64,000 bases of DNA from Candidatus Magasanikiibacteriota bacterium (GTDB lineage: Bacteria > Patescibacteriota > Patescibacteriia > Magasanikbacterales > GWA2-37-8): positions 7,333 through 71,332 of the forward strand of contig CAWJAS010000002.1 of assembly GCA_963840935.1 (NCBI GenBank), written 5' to 3'. Both the position numbers and the translations under genes were made by a program. The notes under the pieces were generated by a model that had not been told where the DNA came from, ran no database searches, and saw only the letters and a list, made by a program, of their open reading frames with translations. Within the stretch, counting starts at the first letter, position 1, and each line of letters opens with the position of its first letter. Shown here piece by piece: positions 1,338 through 50,417 of this stretch.

Positions 1338-1634
1338 TTGTGGACGCATCGCCCCATCGCACCGCTCGACTGTGAACAAACGGCGCGATGGCTGTGGGAT
1401 CATCTTGATGCTGAGCTTACGCCTGCGCAACATGCGGCCGTTGAGCAGCACCTCGCACGATGCCCCGAGTGCACGGCACACTTCGTGTTTGAAGAGCGTT
1501 TTCTTCGCGCGCTTGGGGTGTCGCTCACCATCGATGATGCTGTCGCCGGTCCGTTCGTCCAACATGCGTATGCGAGGGTCACGCAGTCGCTGCAATCCGC
1601 CGGCGTACTGCCAGCCACCTTCGAACACCCATGA
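1338..1634 (+). CDS. anti-sigma factor, zf-HC2 (ChrR-like) domain
   Basis: LDCEQTARWLWDHLDAEL...VEQHLARCPEC matches the HxxxCxxC putative zinc finger of anti-sigma factors; directly downstream of the ECF sigma gene. Confidence 0.5.
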   Translation: MWTHRPIAPLDCEQTARWLWDHLDAELTPAQHAAVEQHLARCPECTAHFVFEERFLRALGVSLTIDDAVAGPFVQHAYARVTQSLQSAGVLPATFEHP

Positions 1635-1907
1635 CAGCGCACGCCAAAACGCCGACTCGGCATCATTGGATTGTACGCAGTCACCCACTGGGTGAACGCG
1701 GTGGCCTTTACGATCATGGTCGGCAGTGGGTTGCGGATCTTTAACGCGTATCCGGCCTTTGCTCGAAAAGGAGAGACTTTCTGCTGTTATCCGTTTGAGG
1801 GACTTCGTATCCCCTCATGGCTCACCTTTGGTGCATGGCTGGGTGGCGCGCGCCATTGGCACTTCGCCATGATGTGGGTCCTCGTCGTCACGGGCCTCGT
1901 GTATCTA
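1631..1907 (+). pseudogene. cytochrome b561 / Ni-hydrogenase b-type cytochrome-like N-terminal fragment, truncated at the junction with the 16S gene; probable frameshift near 1650
   Basis: VTHWVNAVAFTIMVGSGLRIF and ARHWHFAMMWVLVVTGLVYLL resemble the HW...A....L.TG helices of PF01292-type cytochromes; ATG at 1631 is in a different frame from the conserved part; the track ORF only stays open into 1908-1955 by chance. Confidence 0.3.
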
Positions 1908-3190
<1,283 letters not shown>

Positions 3191-3625
3191 AGATATTTGA
3201 TTTTATTTTTTGACGCCTAAGCGCCAAAAAAGAATTTGTATTTTTTGTTTTTAGGAATAAACGATTATCTATGAACAAACCGAAATTTGTTCATGTGGTT
3301 TTTGTCACATTTATATTGTCAACGATCGTTCTTTTCGCTTTCACAATCGCGTACTCATACGATTCTTCGTATTTTTCGAGTTTGAATAAACTCGCGCGGA
3401 AAGAAAAAAGAGGAAGCCAAACTGACTTACTCTTTTCTCCTTCCAGTTTCCTCTTTTCGCAAAAATCAACGAGGACTTAGAAAAATATTTGATTTATTAA
3501 AGATGAAATTTTTGTCAGTATTTTTTTAGCTTGTTAAGCTTACCTCAAAGGCAAAATTTTGTCAAGAGCTAGCCAATATTTTCTTTTTGGATAAACTGTG
3601 GATAAATTCCAAACAATAATTTGGC

Positions 3626-16539: not shown

Positions 16540-17121
16540 TCATTTTTTGATTTTAAACGCAACAAAACCGACAATAAATATACCTAGAATCGCCAAAAAA
16601 ACCAGCCCTCCGGTTGTTTTTGTTAATTTGCTTAGAATGGTTGTTTTATTTGTATCCTCATCAGAATCCAATTGATTGCTATGCGAAGAAATAATCTCGG
16701 CAATGGAATCCGGGCAATCTATCATCATACATTCCTTAATTCTATTTTCAATCTGAATCGGGGTCGCAAAATCAGCGTAACCGATAAATGCCTGGTCGCC
16801 AATAAACACAACCGGCACTCCATCAACTCTAACGATTAACTTCCCGGCAATCTCTTTTAGCATGTCGGCATTATTATTACTATTGTATACCTCAAAATCA
16901 TTGATCTTTAAAGCGCGGTATTTTGCCTGCATGTAATCAAGAAATTCCTTTTCTTTTTCACAGTGAGGACACCCATCGCCCCAAAAAAAATAGGCGTTTA
17001 TTTCGGTAACGGCATTGGCCGGTTCTGCAAAAATGAAATTTCCGAATACAAAAATAAAAAACAGCGCCAAAACGGCATTGAATATTTTTTTATAATGGAA
17101 AAAATTTCTGAATTTTAACAT
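16540..17121 (-). CDS. thioredoxin-fold thiol-disulfide oxidoreductase (CPHC motif) with N- and C-terminal TM anchors
   Basis: AYFFWGDGCPHCEKEKEFLDYMQ; start placed at ATG 17121, because the track ORF extension to 17241 runs into repeat R1. Confidence 0.7.
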   Translation of the reverse strand: MLKFRNFFHYKKIFNAVLALFFIFVFGNFIFAEPANAVTEINAYFFWGDGCPHCEKEKEFLDYMQAKYRALKINDFEVYNSNNNADMLKEIAGKLIVRVDGVPVVFIGDQAFIGYADFATPIQIENRIKECMMIDCPDSIAEIISSHSNQLDSDEDTNKTTILSKLTKTTGGLVFLAILGIFIVGFVAFKIKK

Positions 17122-17122
17122 G

Positions 17123-17524
17123 CGGTCGTTTTTGATTGATGTTCGAACTTTTTTTGAGCAAAACCCCCAATAAGGAAGCCAGCCCCGCCACTGCTCGACA
17201 AGCTCGCCACACCACAGAAAAATACTCTTTGCTCTTTTCATTTTGCGCGCGCCCGATTTTTTCTTCTTTTAATGAAAAGAGTATTTTTCTGCGGTGTTCT
17301 GCCCTCCAAGTATTCGGGCAGGTGGCGGGGCTGGCCTCAATTTGATTGAGAAAAGGAAAAGCGGAATTCCCCCCAAACCCCCCTTCCGCTTTTCCTTTTC
17401 TCAAACGGAACGGGAACGGAAGCAGGCGGGCAAAAATTCCTTCCCCCCAACCCCCTTCCTTTTTGCCCGCCTGCTTGGGCTTCGCCCCCAAAACTTTCGG
17501 ACGGACGGATTTTTCGGCGGACAA
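17123..17524. repeat. repeat R1, copy A (~400 bp; ~97% identical inverted copy at 21892..22294)
   Basis: direct comparison of 17123-17524 with the reverse complement of 21892-22294; contains 13-17 bp perfect hairpins with C-rich loops and a ~160 bp nested palindrome. Confidence 0.85.
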
Positions 17525-17525
17525 A

Positions 17526-18140
17526 CTACAAATCAATTAGGGTATTCAAAAATTGCTCACTTCCCCTTTTGTCAATTTTAGTATCAATAGGAGAAAGTAG
17601 CAATTTATGAATAACCTCTCCTTGAAATTGAGTTACACCTCTTGAATTTCTGCCAGACCAATGCTTCAACAAAATAGTTGATTTTAATAGATCGGTTTGA
17701 AACATTGATATAAGAATTTGGTTTATTATTTTGTTCGGCTCTATCCCAATGAAATAAAACATGAAAACTGACTTATCTTTGGCTAGAAATTCAAGAACTT
17801 TATCAATGTTGTACGCTTTCGGATTTGAATTTAATACCATGATTTTTGTCTTTACATCGGTTGCGGTATCAAAGTTATTGAAAATCTTTATATAGTCCCC
17901 AAGATTGTTTTGAGTTTGGAAATTGGGGATTATTCGGTTGCTGTTGTGGAGTGCTTGGACTAAACTCTCACGAAGTTTTTCATCTTCTCCTGCAATTAAA
18001 TACTCAATGATTCTTCCTCGGATATTTACATTCTCAATGAAGCCAGCTATCAGAATTTCAGTTTTGTATTGATTAACCTTTGCGTCTAATTCTGATTTGA
18101 GTTGTAAATAATCCTTTGAATTCAACAAATTCCATTGCAC
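17526..18140 (-). CDS. hypothetical protein, candidate nuclease/specificity component of the adjacent R-M-like operon
   Basis: no recognisable motif; overlaps the upstream ORF by 68 nt in another frame, so may be the C-terminal part of a frameshifted gene. Confidence 0.4.
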   Translation of the reverse strand: MQWNLLNSKDYLQLKSELDAKVNQYKTEILIAGFIENVNIRGRIIEYLIAGEDEKLRESLVQALHNSNRIIPNFQTQNNLGDYIKIFNNFDTATDVKTKIMVLNSNPKAYNIDKVLEFLAKDKSVFMFYFIGIEPNKIINQILISMFQTDLLKSTILLKHWSGRNSRGVTQFQGEVIHKLLLSPIDTKIDKRGSEQFLNTLIDL

Positions 18141-18690
18141 GAGAAGGAGCAGAAAGAATTATGTCTTTTGCCTTTTTTGATACTTCAAACTTTATACCCG
18201 ATGGACTGATATTATTTGTTGCCTCTACTAAACGAGCCAGATTTCCATCAAAACCAAGCTCGGCATGGATACTGAATAACTTCTCAAAATTTTCTGGCGA
18301 ATTAGTAAGGCCATCAAAAGTTTTGACAATATCGGAGCCGTTGATACTGCCCCTTATATTATCTACACGAAGCTGTTGTGAACTATGGCTAACTTTTTGC
18401 AGAAAGGTGCTATTCGCAATGTAAAGTATATTTTTCTTTGGAGTTACTAAACAAACAAAAAATGGTAGGTGGTCATATTTTTGAAGATTTGAAAGTGAAA
18501 TAACTGTATTTGAAAAACCGTTTGAGGAAGAATAACTAAAACGAACGGAGAAATTTTTTGAGTAGTAAACAGACCTGTCTTTTGTCAGATTAAAAGTTTT
18601 TTGAATTTCCTCTACAAGTACGGATTTATTACCAACTCCATCTTTGGAATTTACAAATTCAATAAATGATTTTATTTCTTTATTTATCAT
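18073..18690 (-). CDS. hypothetical protein, candidate restriction endonuclease (N-terminal part?) of the R-M-like operon
   Basis: position immediately downstream of the methyltransferase with a 4-nt overlap; no confident motif. Confidence 0.4.
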   Translation of the reverse strand: MINKEIKSFIEFVNSKDGVGNKSVLVEEIQKTFNLTKDRSVYYSKNFSVRFSYSSSNGFSNTVISLSNLQKYDHLPFFVCLVTPKKNILYIANSTFLQKVSHSSQQLRVDNIRGSINGSDIVKTFDGLTNSPENFEKLFSIHAELGFDGNLARLVEATNNISPSGIKFEVSKKAKDIILSAPSRAMEFVEFKGLFTTQIRIRRKG

Positions 18691-19700
18691 AATAGTTTTT
18701 TGCTAAATAAATCCGTAGAGTTATTTGCTTTTTCTTTTTTTCCGTTCCCATTCATCTGTTCATTAAGAGTGTTTCGTTCCCAAAATACACCATCAGAATA
18801 TCCCTGTATCTCTTTATTATCACCCATTGCTTCAAGGCGTTTTTCTGCAAGACAACAATACTGCTCATCAATCTCTATGCCGACATATCTACGACCAAGT
18901 TTTTTAGCCACCACCGAGGTTGTTCCTGAACCCAAAAATGGATCAAAAACCACATCATTTGGCTTTGAGCTTGCCAAAATGACCTTTGCAACCAATTTTT
19001 CTGGCTTTTGTGTTGGGTGGTCGGTATTTTCTGGCATTGACCAAAATGGAATAGTTATATCAGTCCAAACATTTGATGGAAAGGTTATCCTGTATTTTCC
19101 ATCAGCACTATCTTCCCAATCTTTCGCGTCTCCATTTTGGTCTTTGTATGGTGCGATTACTTTCCGCTTCATCTTTACAGAATCAACATCAAAGTGATAA
19201 TCGTCAGACAATGTGCAAAACCAAATATCTTCTGAGCAATTTTTCCAGTTACTTTTTGCTCCTCGCCCCTTTTCGCGTTCAAAAGTTATGCGATTCTGTA
19301 TTTTGAAATATTTTTTTGCAACATTAAAAATTGCTCCCGAAGATTTCCAATCGCCACAGATATAAATTGAAGCGTTTGGTTTTAATGTACGGATAAGTTT
19401 AGCAACCCACGAATTTAGCCATTCCTCATATTGCTCTGATTTCATTTCCTTAAATGATGTGGCGTTGAATGTTTTGTTGAGATTATACGGAGGATCAACA
19501 AAAACCAAATCAACAAAATTATCGGGTAGATATTCTAATGCCTCAAAAATATCTTGATGAATAGTTTTATTTTCAATATCTTTCAACGAAACTGGTTTGT
19601 TGATTTTGACCAGTCGTTTTTTCAAAACTGAAATTTCATCATCATTCAAATTGATGGTTCTATTTCTTGGTGCTCTTTGTTTTTGTAAAATTTTTGTCAT
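18687..19700 (-). CDS. beta-class N6-adenine/N4-cytosine DNA methyltransferase
   Basis: motif IV DLVFVDPPYN near the N-terminus and motif I VVFDPFLGSGTT near the C-terminus (beta-class order); HPTQKP. Confidence 0.85.
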   Translation of the reverse strand: MTKILQKQRAPRNRTINLNDDEISVLKKRLVKINKPVSLKDIENKTIHQDIFEALEYLPDNFVDLVFVDPPYNLNKTFNATSFKEMKSEQYEEWLNSWVAKLIRTLKPNASIYICGDWKSSGAIFNVAKKYFKIQNRITFEREKGRGAKSNWKNCSEDIWFCTLSDDYHFDVDSVKMKRKVIAPYKDQNGDAKDWEDSADGKYRITFPSNVWTDITIPFWSMPENTDHPTQKPEKLVAKVILASSKPNDVVFDPFLGSGTTSVVAKKLGRRYVGIEIDEQYCCLAEKRLEAMGDNKEIQGYSDGVFWERNTLNEQMNGNGKKEKANNSTDLFSKKLL

Positions 19701-19702
19701 AG

Positions 19703-21529
19703 CTATTTTTCGTTCAACTTATTTTGAAAATACTGCAAACACTCACTTGAAACATCTTTGAGTAACCCGTTCTTTTCAATCCCATCAAAAGCAATATTGT
19801 CAATTGTTTTTCTTTGGTTCTTTTTGATTGATAACTTTTTATTGACCTCTTTACTGACCTTCTTTTTTACCCACGCAAGGTTGGTATAAAGAGGATTAAA
19901 ATTTCGATCGTGTGTTTTTAAGGATAACTTCTTTAGTATATCAACAGTGATACTTTTTTCTTTTTCATTCAGTAAATTACGAGATGCCTTTCTTTTATCA
20001 ACTGGTTTTATTCGTTTTACCTTTTTCCCAACAGATAATTCCGTGTCTTCAACATTTATCCCAAATTTTTCAAAAAAACTCTTCTTTTCTTCTGGCGAAA
20101 GTTGTTTAACTTGCCCCACCAATTTTTCTATTCCGTGTTCTGGTGATAAAAATTGAGACTCGAAATTTACAACATCATCTCCAACTTCTCGAATTGATAA
20201 CTGTTCTTCTTCAGAATCCCTTTTCTCGCCTGACTTGTTTCCGTCTTTGACAAAACTATCGTCCGTATCTTTTTCTGTAAAAAGTTCCTCCAAAAATTTT
20301 TGATCTTCGTAATCAAACATCTTAAATTCTTGGAAGCGTTTAATTTGGTTTAATCCTATATGAGATACAACATAGCAATGGGAAGTTTCATCGTTTCGTC
20401 TAATAACTCGCCCAAGAAATTGAATGTAAGGATTTAAGCTCTTATATGGTCTAAAAATTGCGGCGACTCCAAGTGGTGGGTGATCAAAACCTTCACCAAG
20501 CATACCGATATGAATAATTACTTCAATTTTTCCATACTTCAAATCATCAAAAACTTTGTCATTCGTTGCCACATCTTGGGCATCCGAGCTTACCAGCCCA
20601 ACTTTCAAACCAAGTTTTTCAAAAGCGGGCTTAACAAATTCTCGCGCGTGGCGTTTGCTAATCGCTGAAGCGATTATTTGATGTTTGGTATTTGGAAACT
20701 CTGCTTTTAGTTCCTCTAATTTTTCTTTAGCTTTTTGAGCAATTGAGCCACAGCAATCTGGAGATAATGCGATACCTCTATTGAACCACGCTTCATCTTT
20801 GAGCTCTAAAATTTGTTCGAGAGAATAAATTTTAGAGCCATCGTCAGTAAAAGATAGTTCTACTTCTTGGGGGGAAACATTGATGATTTTTATATTTCGA
20901 ATTACACCATCCTTAATCGCTTCGTGAAAATGGTATTTATAAATAATATTACCCTCAACCTTTTTGCCGTCTGAACGAAAAGGGGTTGCTGTCAGACCAA
21001 TAATTTTTGACTTATCAAAGAACTTAATTATTTCTTGATAAGTATTTGCCTCTTGATGATGTGCTTCGTCAATGATAATTAAATCAACAGCTTCTTTCTC
21101 GTCCTTAAACCATTTTTCTATATCTTGTAACTGCTGATAATTAGCGATCAAAATTTGATGTTCGGCAATATCGCTTTGGCTAACTGTTCCCTCTAGTCTT
21201 AAAACATAGAGTTCAAGCGTACCCAAAGTATTCGTTTCTATCAAACTAAGTTTTTTATAAATATTTCCTGATGTGTTATTTATAATATCTAAATCTGATT
21301 CGATCTGTTTTGCGAGCTTAACATTTGGTGTCAGCACTAAAACTTTTTTCTTGGCTAGACCAAACGGGGCAATTGCAATAAGAGCACTTTTTCCTGTTCC
21401 AGTTGGTAATTGGACAAGTATGCTCCTTTCCGCTTGTGGCTTTGAAAAATGCTCAAGAATTTTGGAATATGCCTCCCTTTGGCATTTTCGTAGCTCATCA
21501 GTTTTAATTTGTTGCGAAAAATTATCCAT
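19703..21529 (-). CDS. SF2 DEAH-box helicase (ResIII / type III restriction res-subunit-like) with no recognisable nuclease domain
   Basis: motif I LPTGTGKS, motif II IIIDEAHH, motif III GLTATP, motif VI FLGRVIRR; lysine-rich C-terminal tail. Confidence 0.85.
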   Translation of the reverse strand: MDNFSQQIKTDELRKCQREAYSKILEHFSKPQAERSILVQLPTGTGKSALIAIAPFGLAKKKVLVLTPNVKLAKQIESDLDIINNTSGNIYKKLSLIETNTLGTLELYVLRLEGTVSQSDIAEHQILIANYQQLQDIEKWFKDEKEAVDLIIIDEAHHQEANTYQEIIKFFDKSKIIGLTATPFRSDGKKVEGNIIYKYHFHEAIKDGVIRNIKIINVSPQEVELSFTDDGSKIYSLEQILELKDEAWFNRGIALSPDCCGSIAQKAKEKLEELKAEFPNTKHQIIASAISKRHAREFVKPAFEKLGLKVGLVSSDAQDVATNDKVFDDLKYGKIEVIIHIGMLGEGFDHPPLGVAAIFRPYKSLNPYIQFLGRVIRRNDETSHCYVVSHIGLNQIKRFQEFKMFDYEDQKFLEELFTEKDTDDSFVKDGNKSGEKRDSEEEQLSIREVGDDVVNFESQFLSPEHGIEKLVGQVKQLSPEEKKSFFEKFGINVEDTELSVGKKVKRIKPVDKRKASRNLLNEKEKSITVDILKKLSLKTHDRNFNPLYTNLAWVKKKVSKEVNKKLSIKKNQRKTIDNIAFDGIEKNGLLKDVSSECLQYFQNKLNEK

Positions 21530-21533
21530 AACT

Positions 21534-21734
21534 TTATTTAAATAATTCCGCCGTCGGTACGCCGAGGGCTTTGGCTATTTTTTCTAATGTGTCCACAGTA
21601 GGATTCGGATTTTCGCCTGTTTCTATCTTAACAACAGTATTTAACGCTAAATCAGCGTCTTTCGAGAGGCGATCTTGCGAGATTCCTTTCTTGATTCGCA
21701 ATTTGCGAATATTTTCACTTACTGAATTTGCCAT
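21534..21734 (-). CDS. XRE-family HTH transcriptional regulator (controller-protein-like)
   Basis: IRKLRIKKGISQDRLSKDADLALNTVVKIETGENPNPTVDTLEKIAKALGV; first gene of the operon. Confidence 0.8.
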   Translation of the reverse strand: MANSVSENIRKLRIKKGISQDRLSKDADLALNTVVKIETGENPNPTVDTLEKIAKALGVPTAELFK

Positions 21735-21764
21735 ATTGTTTTGACTTTGATAAACTATTATAAT

Positions 21765-21792
21765 ATACTACTTATATTGAGTGTATATCAAA
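21765..21792 (-). promoter_or_regulatory. candidate promoter of the XRE-helicase-MTase operon (TTGATA-16-TAGTAT on minus strand)
   Basis: minus strand TTGATAtacactcaatataagTAGTAT upstream of the XRE gene. Confidence 0.3.
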
Positions 21793-21891
21793 TTGCTTAA
21801 TACAATGGTATCAAAAATATTAAAATTTGGCAAACAAAAAGGGAGTTCCTTAAACTTTTCCGCGCACGGGTGGTGGGGCAAGGAAAAGAAA

Positions 21892-22294
21892 TTGTCCGCC
21901 GAAAAATCCGTCCGTCCGAAAAGTTTTGGGGGCGAAGCCCAAGCAGGCGGGCAAAAAGGAAGGGGGTTGGGGGGAAGGAATTTTTGCCCGCCTGCTTCCG
22001 TTCCCGTTCCGTTTGAGCAAAGGAAAAGCGGAAGGGGGGTTTGGGGGGAATTCCGCTTTTCCTTTGCGAAATCAAATTGAGGCCAGCCCCGCCACCTGCC
22101 TGAATACTTGGAAGGCAGAACACCGCAGAAAAATACTCTTTTCATTAAAAGAAGAAAAAATCGGGCGCGCGCAAAATGAAAAGAGCAAAGAGTATTTTTC
22201 TGTGGTGTGGCGAGCTTGTCGAGCAGTGGCGGGGCTGGCTTCCTTATTGGGGGTTTTGCTCAAAAAAAGTTCGAACATCAATCAAAAAACACCG
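21892..22294. repeat. repeat R1, copy B (inverted relative to copy A)
   Basis: the reverse complement matches 17123-17524 with a few substitutions and one indel. Confidence 0.85.
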
Positions 22295-22425
22295 CCAATT
22301 TTCACTTTTTGTGAAATCGTAAGAAGCTGCCTCGGCGCAAAGCGCCTCGGCATGGTATTTTTCCGCTATTTTGAAGGCATTTTTGAAATCCAAAACCAAA
22401 GTGCGGTCGGCAATGCGGAAGTTCG
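22292..22425. repeat. repeat R2, copy A: inverted duplicate of the recombinase 3' end plus tRNA-Ser terminal CCGCCA
   Basis: 22292-22425 equals the reverse complement of 23910-24043 (~95%), including ccgcca that matches the tRNA 3' end; abuts R1 copy B. Confidence 0.85.
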
Positions 22426-22539
22426 CAGAGCGAAGCACTGGCAAAATGAAATTTTGCAAACCAATCTTTTTTCTTTCGCTTTCAGCGAAAGGTTGAGCGT
22501 ATTTTTCTTTGATTGCCCAAAAACTAATTTCAAAACAAT

Positions 22540-24133
<1,594 letters not shown>

Positions 24134-25800: not shown

Positions 25801-26328
25801 CTACGGCAGGAAAAATGATTCGGCGAGGCAGTCCGGCTCACCGTCGTTTTTGAGACAGCAAGCTACGACCGCCGGGTATTCGACGGGGCAAGTCGTGGGG
25901 CTTGAGGTGCAGGGCGGAGTTTCGTCAACTCCGTTCCAGGTGACCGGCGACCAATAGGCACAACCGCTTCCGGAAAAACCGGAACAGCTTCCTTCGTGGT
26001 CCCAGCAAAACAAAATCTGATTGTCTCCGGGTACCGGCACGTCATAGCATTCGTGTGTCTCCAAACCGCAAACCTGATTCGGTTCGCAGTCATCGACCGA
26101 GTAACAAGAGGTGTCGGTGTCGGTGCCTGCATCTGATTCTGAATCGGTCTGGGAATCGGTGTCCGAATCCGTGTCTGAGTCGGTATCGGCGTCGGTGTCG
26201 GAATCCGTGTCAGAATCCGTATCCGCGTCGGTGTCGGCATCCGTGTCGCTACCCGGAAAAAACGGCGACGGACCAGAATCGCACCCGAGAACCGCAAGAA
26301 AACCGAGCAAAACCCCCAAAACCTTCAT
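25801..26328 (-). CDS. secreted lipoprotein with (D-T/S)n acidic dipeptide repeats and Cys-rich C-terminal domain; GC-rich gene
   Basis: MKVLGVLLGFLAVLGC lipobox; SDTDADTDADTDSDTDSDTDADTDSDTDSDTDS; strong SD (AAGGAGG) before ATG 26328; ~58% GC. Confidence 0.75.
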   Translation of the reverse strand: MKVLGVLLGFLAVLGCDSGPSPFFPGSDTDADTDADTDSDTDSDTDADTDSDTDSDTDSQTDSESDAGTDTDTSCYSVDDCEPNQVCGLETHECYDVPVPGDNQILFCWDHEGSCSGFSGSGCAYWSPVTWNGVDETPPCTSSPTTCPVEYPAVVACCLKNDGEPDCLAESFFLP

Positions 26329-26424
26329 GTTTGCCTCCTTTTTCAAAGCCGAGCTGTTGTTGTAAAGAACGCTTGTTCGCGACTTTATACTATACCTCAA
26401 AAACGCATAATTGTCAACGCAAAT

Positions 26425-36070: not shown

Positions 36071-36649
36071 ATGGAAAAGAAGATGGACCTGAAGCGTCTG
36101 TTCGTGGTTTTCGTCATGACCGCCGGCCTCATCGCCTACGGCATGCTCACGAACGGTTGCGACGAGGGCGACGACGACTGCGCGGACACCGACTGCGACT
36201 CGGACAGCGATACCGACGGCGACACCGACTCGGATACGGATTCGGACACGGATTCCGATACCGACTCCGACACCGACTCGGATACGGACACCGACACCGA
36301 GGTCGACCCGCACGCCTGCGACTGTTTGAACGGCGAGTCGGACGAGGAAGGGTGCGTGGACATCGAGGGTGATTGGTACGTTTACGACTTCTGCTGTGAG
36401 GCAGACGAATTGATGACTGTGGTATTGACTCCGCTCGAAGACAACTGCAAGATCGAGTTTTCGGGTGACGGCGCATGGTTTATTAACTTACATTTCGAGA
36501 CCACCGAACTGCCGACCGAGCTGCACGACGAGGATGAGGACGCAACATACGAGCTGTTGATTGATGAGTATGGCAGACTCATCCAAAAAAAAACCTGGAA
36601 TGCATCGGGTGATGATGATTTCATCGCCTACGAAAGATGTGATTGCTGA
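36071..36649 (+). CDS. secreted lipoprotein with (DTDS)n repeats and Cys-rich acidic C-terminal domain; GC-rich gene
   Basis: LIAYGMLTNGC lipobox; DTDGDTDSDTDSDTDSDTDSDTDSDTDTDTE; GGAGG before the ATG. Confidence 0.75.
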   Translation: MEKKMDLKRLFVVFVMTAGLIAYGMLTNGCDEGDDDCADTDCDSDSDTDGDTDSDTDSDTDSDTDSDTDSDTDTDTEVDPHACDCLNGESDEEGCVDIEGDWYVYDFCCEADELMTVVLTPLEDNCKIEFSGDGAWFINLHFETTELPTELHDEDEDATYELLIDEYGRLIQKKTWNASGDDDFIAYERCDC

Positions 36650-46896: not shown

Positions 46897-46913
46897 TTAA
46901 AAAATGTTAATTA

Positions 46914-47027
46914 TTATCAATAAGTATTGAAGGCAGTCGCGGACCCCGATTCAATCGGGAATCGGGGGAGCGTTAGAGCGACGCGTCTTCAGACGCGGAG
47001 ACTCGTGCCTGAAATGCTTGTTGATAA
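46914..47027. mobile_element. 114-bp MITE-like intergenic repeat, copy 1 (22-bp terminal inverted repeats TTATCAATAAGCATTGAAGGCA)
   Basis: four near-identical copies in the window with TIRs and an internal GC-rich hairpin. Confidence 0.7.
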
Positions 47028-47054
47028 TAAATAAATAATTCTAAAAATATTAAA

Positions 47055-48200
47055 TTATTTTCTAAGCCCCGCATCTGTATAGCGGTTGCTTGCATTCCAC
47101 AAAAACCAACCGGCATCCGAATATTTTTCCGTCACTTCAATTTGGTCTCTAATTTTTTCCGCCCCATAAACCGCGCCAAGGTCAAAAGCCTGAATCCAAG
47201 GCCGAAGCATTGCCCGCCTGCCTTCAAAACGATCCGCTCCAAGCTTCATTCCATTTTCAAAAACCAAACGCGGATAATCGGCCGGATTATTAAGACCCAA
47301 ATGACCGGGCGGATAATGAGAAGGATACATCATCGGGCAAACATAATCGGAAAAATCAAGTGCATCTTCCAAACGCTGACCGATATTCATGTCGTCTTCA
47401 CCGGATTTTTCCATCACAAAACCAAACATATCAAGCGACAGCCATACCGGTTCAGCAGACAAACCGCGACTTAAAAAATCAAAAAATTCTCGCATCACTT
47501 CATATTTTTTCTTATCTCCCACCGTGTACACAACCTCACTCATCCTGCCGTCGGACGGAAACCTGACATAATCAAAATTTATTTCATCAAAACCGAGTTT
47601 TGCCACTTCTTTGGCTATGGCCAAATTGTATTGCCAAACTTCAATGTTCGTCGGGTCAACCCAAGCAAGGCCCTTGTGATCACGCCACAATCCCCCGTTT
47701 TTATTTTTTATCGCCCATTCCGGTTTTTTCTCGGCCAAAATCGGGTCCTGAAAAACAGTTTGCCTGGCAATAACATAAATATTTTCTTCTTTTAATTTTT
47801 TAACAAGCTCCTTCGCGTCGCCCAAACGATTGTCTTTTGTTTTTAATTGAATAACCGCTGGAATTTGGCTGTCATACAAAACAAGTCCGCTGTAATCTTT
47901 AATATCAATAATGACCGCGTTTAATTCCGTTCTTTTTATGAGAGCGATTATTTCATTCAATTTTTTGGCGCTCCCGGCGCTGTAAGCGGTCAAATACAAT
48001 CCTTTTACTTTGATCAACGGATTTTTTTGACCATAAATTAATCTATGAAAATTATTTGAAGAAGTTAACCAAGTATTATTTTCAATATCAATCAAAGTGA
48101 TTTTCCAAAAAAATAAAATTGATATGGCGGATAAAATTGCCACAGCGCACATCAAAAAAACTCCCAAACTACCAAATTGTTTATTTGAAATCTGATTCAT
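47055..48200 (-). CDS. putative glycoside-hydrolase-like TIM-barrel protein (DUF4015-like), N-terminal TM
   Basis: conserved core IIDIKDYSG...FDEINFDYVRFP...CPMMYPSHY; start at ATG 48200 because the upstream extension lies inside MITE copy 2. Confidence 0.5.
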   Translation of the reverse strand: MNQISNKQFGSLGVFLMCAVAILSAISILFFWKITLIDIENNTWLTSSNNFHRLIYGQKNPLIKVKGLYLTAYSAGSAKKLNEIIALIKRTELNAVIIDIKDYSGLVLYDSQIPAVIQLKTKDNRLGDAKELVKKLKEENIYVIARQTVFQDPILAEKKPEWAIKNKNGGLWRDHKGLAWVDPTNIEVWQYNLAIAKEVAKLGFDEINFDYVRFPSDGRMSEVVYTVGDKKKYEVMREFFDFLSRGLSAEPVWLSLDMFGFVMEKSGEDDMNIGQRLEDALDFSDYVCPMMYPSHYPPGHLGLNNPADYPRLVFENGMKLGADRFEGRRAMLRPWIQAFDLGAVYGAEKIRDQIEVTEKYSDAGWFLWNASNRYTDAGLRK

Positions 48201-48222
48201 GATAAATGTTTTATATTTTTTA

Positions 48223-48336
48223 TTATCAATAAGTATTGAAGGCAGTCGCGGACCCCAATTCAATCGGGAATCGGGGGAGCGTTAGAGCGCCACGCCTTCA
48301 GGCGTGGCGACTCGTGCCTGAAATGCTTATTGATAA
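48223..48336. mobile_element. 114-bp MITE-like repeat, copy 2 (central stem carries compensatory substitutions)
   Basis: tatcaataagtattgaaggcagtcgcggacccc...gcgccacgccttcaggcgtggcgactcgtgcctgaaatgcttattgataa. Confidence 0.7.
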
Positions 48337-48344
48337 TAAAAAAA

Positions 48345-48941
48345 TTACAAAATTTTTAAGCCTCCTTGTCTGATCAATTTTATATCCCTTCCCGATGCTT
48401 CAACAATGGTAGTGGGCGAATTTTTTGGCAAATCTCTTCCATCGACCAAAACATCAGGCGGATTATCGCTCAAAGAAAATATTTCATTTATTTCAGCAAA
48501 ATTATACAATGACTCCTCGCCGGAAATATTGGCCGAAGTCGCCACGAGCGGACCATTCATTTTTTGGCATAATTCTTTCAGCCACAGATCATCGGGCACT
48601 CTAACCGCCACTGTATTATTTTTTGACACTACTCCACGAGTCAAAGAAAGCCCGGAATACTCGCCGATAACCGTCAAAGGACCGGGCCAATATTTTTTGG
48701 CCAGTTCATCTATATTTTTATTCCAAACCAAATAATTTCTTGCGCTTTGAATATCGGGCACAATAATCAAAAGCGGTTTGTTATAATCACGTTTTTTTAT
48801 ATCAAAAATTCTGTCCACCGCTTGTTGATTTGAAGCATCGCAACCGAGGGCGTAAGAAGTTTCGGCCGGAAAAATTATAACATCTCCCCTTTTAAAACGC
48901 TCCGCCAAAATATCAATATCTTTCTTAGATAAAATATCCAT
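48345..48941 (-). CDS. tsaC: L-threonylcarbamoyladenylate synthase TsaC/YrdC
   Basis: IIFPAETSYALGCDASNQQAVDRIFDIKKRDYNKPLLIIV...GPLVATSANISG. Confidence 0.85.
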   Translation of the reverse strand: MDILSKKDIDILAERFKRGDVIIFPAETSYALGCDASNQQAVDRIFDIKKRDYNKPLLIIVPDIQSARNYLVWNKNIDELAKKYWPGPLTVIGEYSGLSLTRGVVSKNNTVAVRVPDDLWLKELCQKMNGPLVATSANISGEESLYNFAEINEIFSLSDNPPDVLVDGRDLPKNSPTTIVEASGRDIKLIRQGGLKIL

Positions 48942-48991
48942 GATTATATAATTTTTAACCTGTCACTCGCGAGCGACGAGTTTCATTTTTA

Positions 48992-49104
48992 TTAGCGATA
49001 AGCATTGAAGGCAGTCGCGGACCCCAATTCAATCGGGAATCGGGGGAGCGTTAGAGCGACGCGTCATCAGACACGGAGACTCGTGCCTGAAATGCTTATT
49101 GACA
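48992..49104. mobile_element. MITE-like repeat, copy 3 (ends slightly degenerate)
   Basis: gcgataagcattgaaggcagtcgcggaccccaattcaatcgggaatcgggggagcg...gtgcctgaaatgcttattgaca. Confidence 0.65.
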
Positions 49105-49147
49105 AACAAATATTTATGCGGTGGGTAATATTTTTTGAAATTTACTC

Positions 49148-50221
49148 TTATTTCTTGATCCACTTCAAATACGCCTCGCACAAAGGCATCAAATCCCCTT
49201 CCAAAACAGACTCCGGGTCAGCCGATTCATAATCAGTGCGGTGGTCTTTAACCATATGATATGGGTGCAAAACATAAGAACGAATCTGATTCCCCCATTC
49301 AGCTGATTTGTATTCTCCACGCAAATCTTTTTTTTCTTTTGCGATTCTTTCTTGTTCCAATCTGAATAATTTTGCCCGTAAGATTTTCATCGCCGTTTCT
49401 TTGTTTTGTTGTTGCGAACGCTCATTCTGGCATGAAACGCTGATACCGGTCGGAGTATGGACAATGCGAACGGCGGAGTAAGTGGTGTTAACGCTTTGTC
49501 CGCCGTGGCCACCGGACATAAAAGTATCAATTCGCAAATCTTCCGGCTTAATTTCAATTTGGACGCTTTCGTCAATCTCCGGCAAAACTTCAATCAAAGC
49601 AAAAGATGTATGGCGCATTTTTTCGGCGTCAAAAGGCGAAATTCTGACCAATCGGTGAACGCCATGCTCGGATTTTAAATAACCAAAAGCATACAGTCCT
49701 TTAATTTCAACTGTAACGGATTTATAACCGGCTTCAGCACCGCGAGATTCATCAATCACGCGAACACGCCAATTCATTTTCTCCGCGAACCGCAAAATCA
49801 TCCGCAAAAGCATTTCCGCCCAGTCCTGCGCCTCGGTACCGCCCGAACCGGCATGTATGGCGACAACGGCATTATTTTTGTCGTACGGCCCATTAAGCAA
49901 AAGAAAAAATTCATAATCAGCAAACTTATTTTCCAATTCACTAATTTGTTTTTCGATTTCTTCTTTAATATTTTCTCCCTCGGAAGATGAAAGCTCTTCC
50001 AAATCGCGCGCCTCTTTTTCCAAATCACACCATTTATCAACTTCTTTTCTTATATCATTATAATCGGCGGAAATAGACTGGGCCCTTTCTTGATTACTCC
50101 AAAAATCCGGCTCGTTCATTTCTTTGCCAAGCTGTTCCATCTTTTTTTTGAGTTCATCAATATGAAGCAATTCCATTGTCGCTTTTATTTTTTGTTGTAA
50201 ATTTTTCAACTTCTCAGTCAT
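49148..50221 (-). CDS. prfB: peptide chain release factor 2 (contiguous ORF, no programmed frameshift)
   Basis: SPF tripeptide (RISPFDAEK) and GGQ motif (SGGHGGQSVNTT); start at ATG 50221 because the upstream TTG extension lies in MITE copy 4. Confidence 0.9.
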   Translation of the reverse strand: MTEKLKNLQQKIKATMELLHIDELKKKMEQLGKEMNEPDFWSNQERAQSISADYNDIRKEVDKWCDLEKEARDLEELSSSEGENIKEEIEKQISELENKFADYEFFLLLNGPYDKNNAVVAIHAGSGGTEAQDWAEMLLRMILRFAEKMNWRVRVIDESRGAEAGYKSVTVEIKGLYAFGYLKSEHGVHRLVRISPFDAEKMRHTSFALIEVLPEIDESVQIEIKPEDLRIDTFMSGGHGGQSVNTTYSAVRIVHTPTGISVSCQNERSQQQNKETAMKILRAKLFRLEQERIAKEKKDLRGEYKSAEWGNQIRSYVLHPYHMVKDHRTDYESADPESVLEGDLMPLCEAYLKWIKK

Positions 50222-50238
50222 AATAAGTGTAATTTTAA

Positions 50239-50352
50239 TTATCAATAAGCATTGAAGGCAGTCGCGGACCCCAATTCAATCGGGAATCGGGGGAGCGTTA
50301 GAGCGACGCGTCTTCAGACGCGGAGACTCGTGCCTGAAATGCTTGTTGATAA
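50239..50352. mobile_element. 114-bp MITE-like repeat, copy 4
   Basis: ttatcaataagcattgaaggcagtcgcggaccccaattcaatcgggaatcgggggagcgttagagcgacgcgtcttcagacgcggagactcgtgcctgaaatgcttgttgataa. Confidence 0.7.
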
Positions 50353-50417
50353 TAAAATAGATTGATTCGAAAAGTAATAATTCTGAAAAAGATGTGTTTT
50401 ATTAAAAAAGATCACTT

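Follow-up and report, generated by a model that had tools for sequence, protein, structure and literature searches.

We analysed a 64,000-nt stretch of Candidatus Magasanikiibacteriota DNA (contig CAWJAS010000002.1), the whole of which is called the window here, with a focus on the hairpin-rich repeat R1 and the mobile element to which it belongs. Judged by its sequence, R1 is one of two long inverted arms of an integrative element of about 6.9 kb (17122-24043) at the 3' end of a tRNA-Ser(GCT) gene. From left to right the element consists of R1, an arc holding a helix-turn-helix (HTH) gene and cargo, the inverted copy R1', the inverted second arm I2', the recombinase gene and the arm I2, which meets the tRNA gene. 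The distal arm (R1A, 17122-17524, plus strand) spans the sequence between the attL crossover and the cargo end. The first-pass annotation had recorded a second copy of R1, without recognising R1 as half of the inverted repeat of a mobile element; the second copy is present, with 98% identity, as the proximal arm (R1B, 21892-22295, minus strand) and is an inverted repeat, not a direct one. The two arms differ at 9 positions, two paired changes included. A glutaredoxin-like gene (16540-17121) flanks the element on the attL side.

All genes of the cargo arc are read on the minus strand. The first of them is a core gene for a 66-aa HTH_3 regulator (21534-21734; Pfam, PHROGs), followed by a ResIII/DEAD helicase-type restriction subunit (19703-21529; profile matches in Pfam and PADLOC), an intact N6/N4 DNA methyltransferase (18687-19700; Pfam PF01555, PADLOC MTase_II) and a type II restriction endonuclease (17526-18690). 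The endonuclease gene is split by a frameshift into two overlapping open reading frames (ORFs), 17526-18140 and 18073-18690, which match positions 186-382 and 3-188, respectively, of a PADLOC profile of 384 positions.

The second inverted pair is 134 nt long (22292-22425, minus strand; 23910-24043, plus strand), adjoins R1B on the right and encloses the gene for a large serine recombinase (LSR; 22540-24097, plus strand). The left arm of this pair, I2', repeats the final 134 nt of the recombinase region in inverted orientation and is non-coding. The right arm, I2, holds the P half-site as well as the recombinase gene's 3' end, and it restores the integration target on the attR side, tRNA-Ser(GCT) (24038-24133, minus strand), by providing its CCGCCA end. 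The recombinase gene has a +1 frameshift near 22840, and its ORF crosses attR into the antisense strand of the tRNA gene. Where R1B and I2' meet lies the internal junction J2 (22285-22305, minus strand), an intact inverted attP copy (..TTGGCGG/TGTTTTTTGA..) that was conserved in all loci examined. Read as its reverse complement, 21892-22425 equals 23910-24043 with 17122-17524 joined to it, so the element holds within itself an inverted, intact copy of the sequence of its joined ends.

The domains of the recombinase, a protein of about 500 aa, were found on its two frameshifted ORFs and are those of an LSR: Resolvase (PF00239), Recombinase (PF07508) and Zn_ribbon_recom (PF13408). Its YARKSTD motif aligns with YCRVSTD in the catalytic domain of PDB 3g13, which includes the nucleophilic serine. 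To define the ends of the element, the attL, internal and attR junctions were compared as triads in about 20 loci. At attR the sequence reads ..TTGGCGG/AGAGGG.GGGATTCGAACC (tRNA), at the internal site ..TTGGCGG/TGTTTTTTGA..GTTCGAAC, and at attL host DNA ..GCGG/TGTTTTTTGA..., where the loci share no related host DNA on the left. As in other LSR systems, attL, attR and attP share just a short core, (G)GCGG. The three-junction comparison places the crossover in GCGG, with R1 starting exactly there, and thereby fixes the ends of the element.

In the window the attL crossover (GCGG, 17122-17125) and the adjoining P' half-site occupy 17122-17160 on the plus strand and include the T-loop-like motif GTTCGAAC at a distance of 16 nt from the core. 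The T-loop complement TTCGAAC in the tRNA gene lies 11 nt from the core, compared with 16 nt in the P' part of R1. Across six tRNA targets the T-loop-like motif stood further out in the arm than in the tRNA, by 5 bp in 8 of 10 cases and by 4 bp in the other 2 (Asn cases were counted by hand), and arms from other clades carried TCCGAAC or TCAGAAC as the T-loop-like motif beside the crossover. In structures of the LI integrase with DNA, the zinc-ribbon motif is positioned 5 bp further outward in attP than in attB half-sites. The outward shift seen here matches this attP/attB geometry, so that the assignment of nt 1-30 of R1 to a P' half-site is a well-grounded prediction; the first 30-45 nt or so of R1 were nearly invariant in our alignment of arms (A3). 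The suggestion that R1 is a recombination site therefore holds for its outer end only, with attL at 17122. By domain content and attachment-site geometry, the element is a serine-integrase integrative element.

In about 35 of 40 loci, the right end of the element abutted a tRNA-Ser gene at its 3' end, whatever the anticodon. Recombinase clades with 45-57% identity show this double inverted repeat as well, next to tRNA-Asn, Val, Ala, Arg(TCT), Ile, Leu or Ser, and at least seven different tRNAs are targeted across the recombinase clades that share hairpin iii (described below). We also considered whether the outer 100 nt or so of R1 could be a decayed copy of tRNA-Ser and rejected this, as Rfam sees no tRNA there. 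A single 17-nt D-arm-like match in outer R1 scored 22, against 14 ± 2 in shuffled sequences, and 2 of 500 shuffles reached 22.

Further observations concern the recombinase gene and the 134-nt arms. Around the frameshift (window 22830-22900) the translation reads ..GRIIYL / LVDTGKI.., where intact homologues read through, which points either to a decaying copy or to a sequencing error. The tail of the ORF inside the antisense tRNA (24041-24097) is RGRDSNPRCDLESRTTH; in a joined circle, the tail ..SFLIDVRTFF would be encoded by R1 instead. Homologue lengths of 501-580 aa (P0001-P0120) are consistent with ORFs that enter different flanks, and from its reading frame the recombinase could occur as two isoforms depending on integration state. 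The inner boundary of the 134-nt arm (window 23907-23932 and 22403-22427) falls at the GTTCGAAC motif inside the recombinase gene. Beside this boundary, the sequence GCGGTCGGCAATGCGGAAGTTCG resembles the P' arm GCGGTCGTTTTTGATTGATGTTCG and may be a relic of the origin of the duplication.

Past the P' half-site, R1 consists, across the family, of one to four perfect palindromes in a variable series. In the window it contains the three hairpin groups that had been seen at first pass, and the single strands fold far better than expected by chance (z = -8.6 for the plus strand and -5.4 for the minus strand; 0 of 100 shuffles were as good). Module i (17175-17338, no strand assigned) forms a branched palindrome, about 160 nt in all, whose AT-rich centre includes GCGCGCGC. 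Its outer arms (17175-17191 / 17322-17338) are 17 nt long and 94% complementary, its middle arms (17209-17230 / 17276-17297) 22 nt and 95%, and its innermost arms (17232-17242 / 17271-17281), a lineage-specific stem, 11 nt and perfect. The stems of the nested palindrome described earlier are thus all present; however, bases 17276-17281 belong to both the innermost and the middle stem, so the two cannot form fully at the same time. Stems of 13-17 bp had been described for the other two hairpins. This is correct for hairpin iii (17420-17476, no strand; arms 17420-17436 / 17460-17476), which has 17 perfect bp and a C-rich mirror-repeat loop of 23 nt, but hairpin ii (17346-17404, no strand; arms 17346-17366 / 17384-17404) has 21 perfect bp around the 17-nt loop TTCCCCCCAAACCCCCC. 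The loops of R1 are homopurine/homopyrimidine mirror repeats. Hairpin iii is the innermost module of R1 and the most widely conserved. In R1B the corresponding modules lie at 21941-21997 (hairpin iii'), 22017-22067 (hairpin ii') and approximately 22079-22242 (module i'). A weak sigma-70-like match, TCGACA-17-AAAAAT (9/12), was seen in module i of both arms (17195-17223, plus strand; 22222-22194, minus strand). It is directed into the cargo and is no better than expected by chance.

The element belongs to a large family. The recombinase, once repaired, has thousands of close homologues, mostly in metagenome-assembled genomes of Patescibacteria. A scan of species-representative genomes confirmed at least 540 loci of the tRNA-Ser clade (540 of the 599 first candidates), and 80 loci were retained. 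About 23 loci with enough sequence shared one layout, namely an R1 arm and its inverted partner on either side of 1.3-7.1 kb of cargo, then the inverted 134-nt arm, a unique stretch of about 115-245 nt and the recombinase gene, the last 134 nt of which form the other arm of the second pair. The same double inverted pair was also present in many metagenome loci. Homologues of R1 outside this assembly had been proposed as a check, and they are plentiful: homologous arms occupied the same position in about 30 loci and arms were found in dozens of genomes, while a scan of metagenomes with a 37-nt hairpin iii pattern gave at least 120 contigs. Arms within one element were usually 97-100% identical; between elements, R1 varied in length (155-420 nt) and content. 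Modules i and ii were missing from many elements, and module i was absent from other R1 types. All 41 two-hairpin loci showed inverted pairs.

Besides the recombinase, the only other core gene encodes the 66-aa HTH protein. It was found beside an R1 arm in about 95 loci (tblastn) and was always the first gene of the cargo arc; the cargo of the family consists mostly of restriction-modification and other defence genes. BLAST searches of R1 against phage and plasmid collections gave no match, nor did the hairpin iii pattern match viral contigs of IMG/VR, so R1 is not phage- or plasmid-borne in the searched sets. The possibility that R1 is a dispersed element was not borne out either. Across the window and about 1 Mb of retrieved loci, hairpins with a G5-N-G5 loop (or its complement) on a stem of at least 8 bp occurred solely in R1 arms, and the two R1 copies in the 64-kb window do not make a dispersed repeat of the repetitive extragenic palindrome/bacterial interspersed mosaic element (REP/BIME) or miniature inverted-repeat transposable element (MITE) kind.

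The position of hairpin iii was surveyed in 177 instances. In 83 of these it lay downstream of a stop codon at a median distance of 64 nt (interquartile range 47-77), with a long ORF reading towards the hairpin, and in 75 it preceded the HTH start by 151-251 nt (median 211). The remainder were near contig edges (17) or fitted neither position (2). In all 23 genome loci, no more than about 70 nt separated the last cargo stop codon from the inner end of an arm, and in 22 the gap was at most 40 nt, which leaves no room for another terminator. The cargo arc was found in both orientations (19 versus 4 loci). The recombinase arc was never reversed: hairpin iii lay downstream of 0 of 75 recombinase 3' ends and upstream of 43 of 68 recombinase 5' ends.

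These positions are the basis of the reading that we favour, with moderate confidence, in which the palindromes of R1, the cargo-flanking arm of a tRNA-targeting LSR element, act as orientation-independent boundaries of cargo transcription, a role that we infer from where they lie. On one side the hairpins would terminate the cargo transcript or make it more stable, and on the other they would shield the HTH promoter and the cargo from transcription arriving from the tRNA/recombinase side. Transcription of the tRNA gene would run into the element in the direction of the cargo, antisense to the recombinase. Since each palindrome lies within an inverted repeat, such a boundary would work in whichever orientation the cargo arc is found. 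The perfect stems and the near-identical arms would be kept by correction at the DNA level, that is, by gene conversion between the arms and within the palindromes.

Several points weigh against this boundary role. The hairpins are non-canonical as terminators, in agreement with the judgement made at first pass: the stems are GC-rich, but the loops measure 17-23 nt, no T-run (U-tract in the transcript) follows, and a terminator scan found none in R1. Their position after stop codons fits, so R1 may work in a terminator-like manner without being an intrinsic terminator. A boundary role leaves unexplained the conservation of the mirror-repeat loops across recombinase clades, and also the presence of a complete inverted attP and a 134-nt coding segment in the repeat. 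Elements can do without modules i and ii: locus L019 lacks both through a clean deletion between CCGCTC repeats. Finally, the copy in the window may be inactive, because its recombinase and restriction genes are both frameshifted; sequencing error could also be the cause.

Among the alternatives, the one that survives best, though we think it unlikely, is that R1 serves recombination itself as an accessory to the attachment site. The palindromes would extrude as cruciforms or hairpins, and the G/C loops, or G-quadruplex/i-motif structures formed by them, would join the arms or flag the DNA to a host factor or to the recombinase. R1 runs on directly from the P' half-site, and the two are always duplicated together. 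The loop is also conserved more than the recombinase, with exact 37-nt hairpin iii matches beside recombinases diverged to about 50% identity (45-57% between clades), and the function would be strand-symmetric. G-quadruplex potential, which had been claimed for four long G tracts, does exist at the sequence level: G4Hunter scores reached 2.12, and scores of at least 1.5 in the window were confined to the R1 loops besides one spot in the 16S rRNA gene. Each loop, however, supplies two G5-6 tracts plus GG pairs, so that four long tracts need hairpins ii and iii combined, about 70 nt apart, and the many elements with a single G/C-loop hairpin have two long G tracts per arm. Spacing argues against this alternative, as the distance from hairpin iii to the crossover varied from about 60 to 330 nt, in contrast to the tight distance to the cargo edge. 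In addition, relatives in Elusimicrobia keep the double repeat and lack the G/C loops, and characterised serine integrases need sites of only about 50 bp.

A related proposal, which we also regard as improbable, is that the double inverted repeat is the working part of an undescribed transposition or maintenance cycle, acting through the intact inverted attP and through the hairpins as DNA signals (loops pairing, or G-quadruplex/i-motif formation). In one version, the element would need no excision before reacting with a new tRNA target; in another, the arcs would flip and switch the recombinase on; in a third, the element would be amplified as a circle resembling the yeast 2-micron plasmid. 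If this proposal were true, then, taken together with the recombinase clades re-targeted to at least seven tRNAs through T-loop mimicry, the element would represent a new class of serine-recombinase mobile element and a main route of defence-gene exchange in the Candidate Phyla Radiation (CPR).

We give a distinctly smaller chance to a strand-specific structured RNA, such as a 5' leader of the recombinase, an element in the 3' untranslated region of the cargo transcript, or a small RNA with G-rich (GGA or Shine-Dalgarno-like) or C-rich (anti-Shine-Dalgarno-like) loops that bind a protein or mRNA. Covariation was checked, as had been proposed, in 18 arms sharing modules i and ii. The results showed strong covariation of the stems, with 95.3% of cells paired compared with 47-54% when the partner was slid (0 of 500 shuffles reached the observed values) and double compensatory changes in 19 of 41 stem pairs. 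The folds are very stable, the loops contain GGA and GGAGG motifs, and hairpin ii had a single polarity in all 14 elements that have it, although this constancy may reflect common descent alone. However, the mismatches that would be G.U pairs on one strand or A.C on the other were equally frequent (19 versus 22), with no excess of G.U on either strand, and the stems are otherwise perfect Watson-Crick palindromes. The polarity of the hairpin iii loop was random with respect to both neighbouring genes (26 G and 24 C relative to the recombinase; 35 G and 40 C relative to the HTH gene), and the loop variants TT and TCT were each found in both polarities. In the window, the G-rich strand is indeed in the sense orientation at both copies, for the cargo operon at R1A and the recombinase at R1B, as the first-pass annotation stated, but this polarity is not conserved across the family. 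No Rfam family matched R1 at the gathering threshold, and a permissive search gave generic microRNA-like hairpins far below it. The equal G.U and A.C counts, the perfect stems and the random polarity of hairpin iii together argue against a strand-specific RNA and weaken the earlier suggestion of one, even with covariation present.

That the palindromes have no function of their own is, to us, similarly hard to credit. They would then be selfish or mechanical by-products of template switching or palindrome correction, in a repeat kept for another reason. The wide variation in number and kind of modules, and the deletability of modules i and ii, would follow from this; perfect stems with seemingly compensatory changes are also expected from intrastrand correction, and loop flips are typical of short inverted repeats. 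It does not account for the loop sequence of hairpin iii and its 47-77 nt spacing from stop codons, both conserved across deeply diverged recombinase clades.

Very doubtful, in our estimate, is a replication or amplification module of an excised 2-micron-like circle, in which the G-rich loops and AT-rich palindrome centres would form a transcription-primed origin. A joined circle would hold the junction twice, inverted, in two repeats of about 0.5 kb that split the cargo arc from the recombinase arc, and G-rich tracts resemble the R-loop sites at which primers form. Contigs of 7.1-7.8 kb with close recombinase homologues were considered as possible excised circles; the two inspected (L081 and L082) were linear chromosomal pieces with other genes, and no circular contig was found. 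Replication genes are absent from the core and cargo genes. Moreover, equal use of both attP copies predicts that half of the recombinase arcs would be reversed, against the 0 of 75 observed. An assembly artefact, in the form of a fold-back chimera with a false inverted repeat, can be practically discounted: many contigs break within R1, and some metagenome contigs are palindromic as in repeat-induced misassembly (L177 and L123, with long perfect palindromes around the cargo arc that are probably artefacts arising from the inverted arms; the 1717-nt inverted repeat of L177 includes the recombinase), but R1A and R1B differ from each other as given above, and separate assemblies of dozens of genomes, made in different projects, show this layout too.

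Individual loci of the family showed further arrangements. In L011 (9560-11700) the recombinase arc lies between identical convergent tRNA-Ser(GGA) genes and has no R1, and the two 134-nt arms of this locus are of two different sequence types near the crossover. In the arrays of L019 (11470-11560) and L030 (1900-7800) a 134-nt arm stands directly before another R1-type arm and not before a tRNA, a sequence arrangement which suggests that new elements may insert at the attR of resident ones and that the tRNA half-site alone matters. Five loci (L001, L003, L009, L013 and L034) have a second tRNA-Ser gene, often in the opposite orientation, 0.1-2.5 kb from the occupied one; these second genes may be a trace of element-driven rearrangement between tRNA-Ser genes. 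Two hybrids were also seen, L026 with arms that are 90% (R1) and 75% (134-nt arm) identical and L039 with two different R1 types, which suggests recombination between different elements.

Elsewhere in the window, the 16S rRNA gene (1630-3393, minus strand) measures 1764 nt against about 1525 model positions and was recovered as two pieces at the gathering threshold; this corresponds to insertions of about 240 nt, which are common in CPR. Four copies of a 134-nt repeat (85-92% identical to the reference copy) occur at 46901-50359, between or at the ends of successive minus-strand genes, and within this region lies an internal inverted repeat of 41 nt (48204-48355). Inverted repeats of 74-84% identity, at several offsets, were found between 26110-26300 and 36155-36300, inside the ORFs 25801-26400 (minus strand) and 36071-36649 (plus strand). 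These two ORFs look like similar-sized paralogues that bracket about 10 kb.

Patescibacteria (CPR) have tiny genomes, and their gene exchange is poorly understood; the element family is very common in them and carries mostly defence cargo. The family also offers a natural series of serine integrases with switched tRNA targets, in which the attP arm mimics the T-loop at a 5-bp offset, and this is useful both for understanding integrase specificity and for its engineering. The puzzle that it poses is why a serine-integrase element keeps a second, inverted attP together with conserved palindromes that have mirror-repeat G/C loops.

Our literature search, which was incomplete in coverage so that an earlier description is possible, found no description of the double-repeat architecture or of the hairpins. 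For the palindromes themselves, the nearest parallels are REP/BIME palindromes and bidirectional terminators. REP elements stabilise upstream mRNA. Like these, the R1 palindromes are GC-rich, lie just 3' of stop codons and would work independently of orientation; unlike them, they are not dispersed in the genome and have loops of 17-23 nt with conserved sequence and no U-tract. The yeast 2-micron plasmid, with FLP/FRT in 599-bp inverted repeats, resembles the predicted circle of this element in having two long repeats with recombinase sites and two arcs. This likeness is geometric only, as FLP is a tyrosine recombinase, and neither a circle nor an origin or partition genes were seen for the present element. 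The G segment of Mu (Gin) and the C segment of P1 (Cin) are invertible segments, and the repeats of P1 are inverted and 0.6 kb long. Such DNA-invertase systems share with our element a segment bounded by inverted repeats, crossover at the outer ends, a serine recombinase gene just outside and the occurrence of both orientations. The recombinase here, however, is an LSR of about 500 aa and not an invertase of about 190 aa, and the flip has no evident effect on expression, which sets the element apart from this class.

At the level of whole elements, tycheposons and other tRNA-targeting islands are similarly small and cargo-carrying, use tRNA genes with an integrase clade for each tRNA, often carry defence cargo, and stack in arrays as seen here in L019 and L030. 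Tycheposons mostly use tyrosine recombinases, often together with replication genes, and long internal inverted repeats or hairpin modules are not described for them (bioRxiv 10.1101/2020.12.28.424599). Compared with serine-integrase elements (A118/LI, Bxb1, phiC31, TnpX of Tn4451 and Ccr of SCCmec), the present element has an extra inverted intact attP with about 0.3-0.55 kb of flank, places cargo and recombinase each between inverted repeats, targets the extreme 3' end of a tRNA gene, has a recombinase ORF that reads over attR, and has no separate directionality factor in evidence. With these same elements it shares the three LSR domains and the serine nucleophile motif, crossover identity of a few bases, and an outer attP motif that lies 5 bp further out than in attB.

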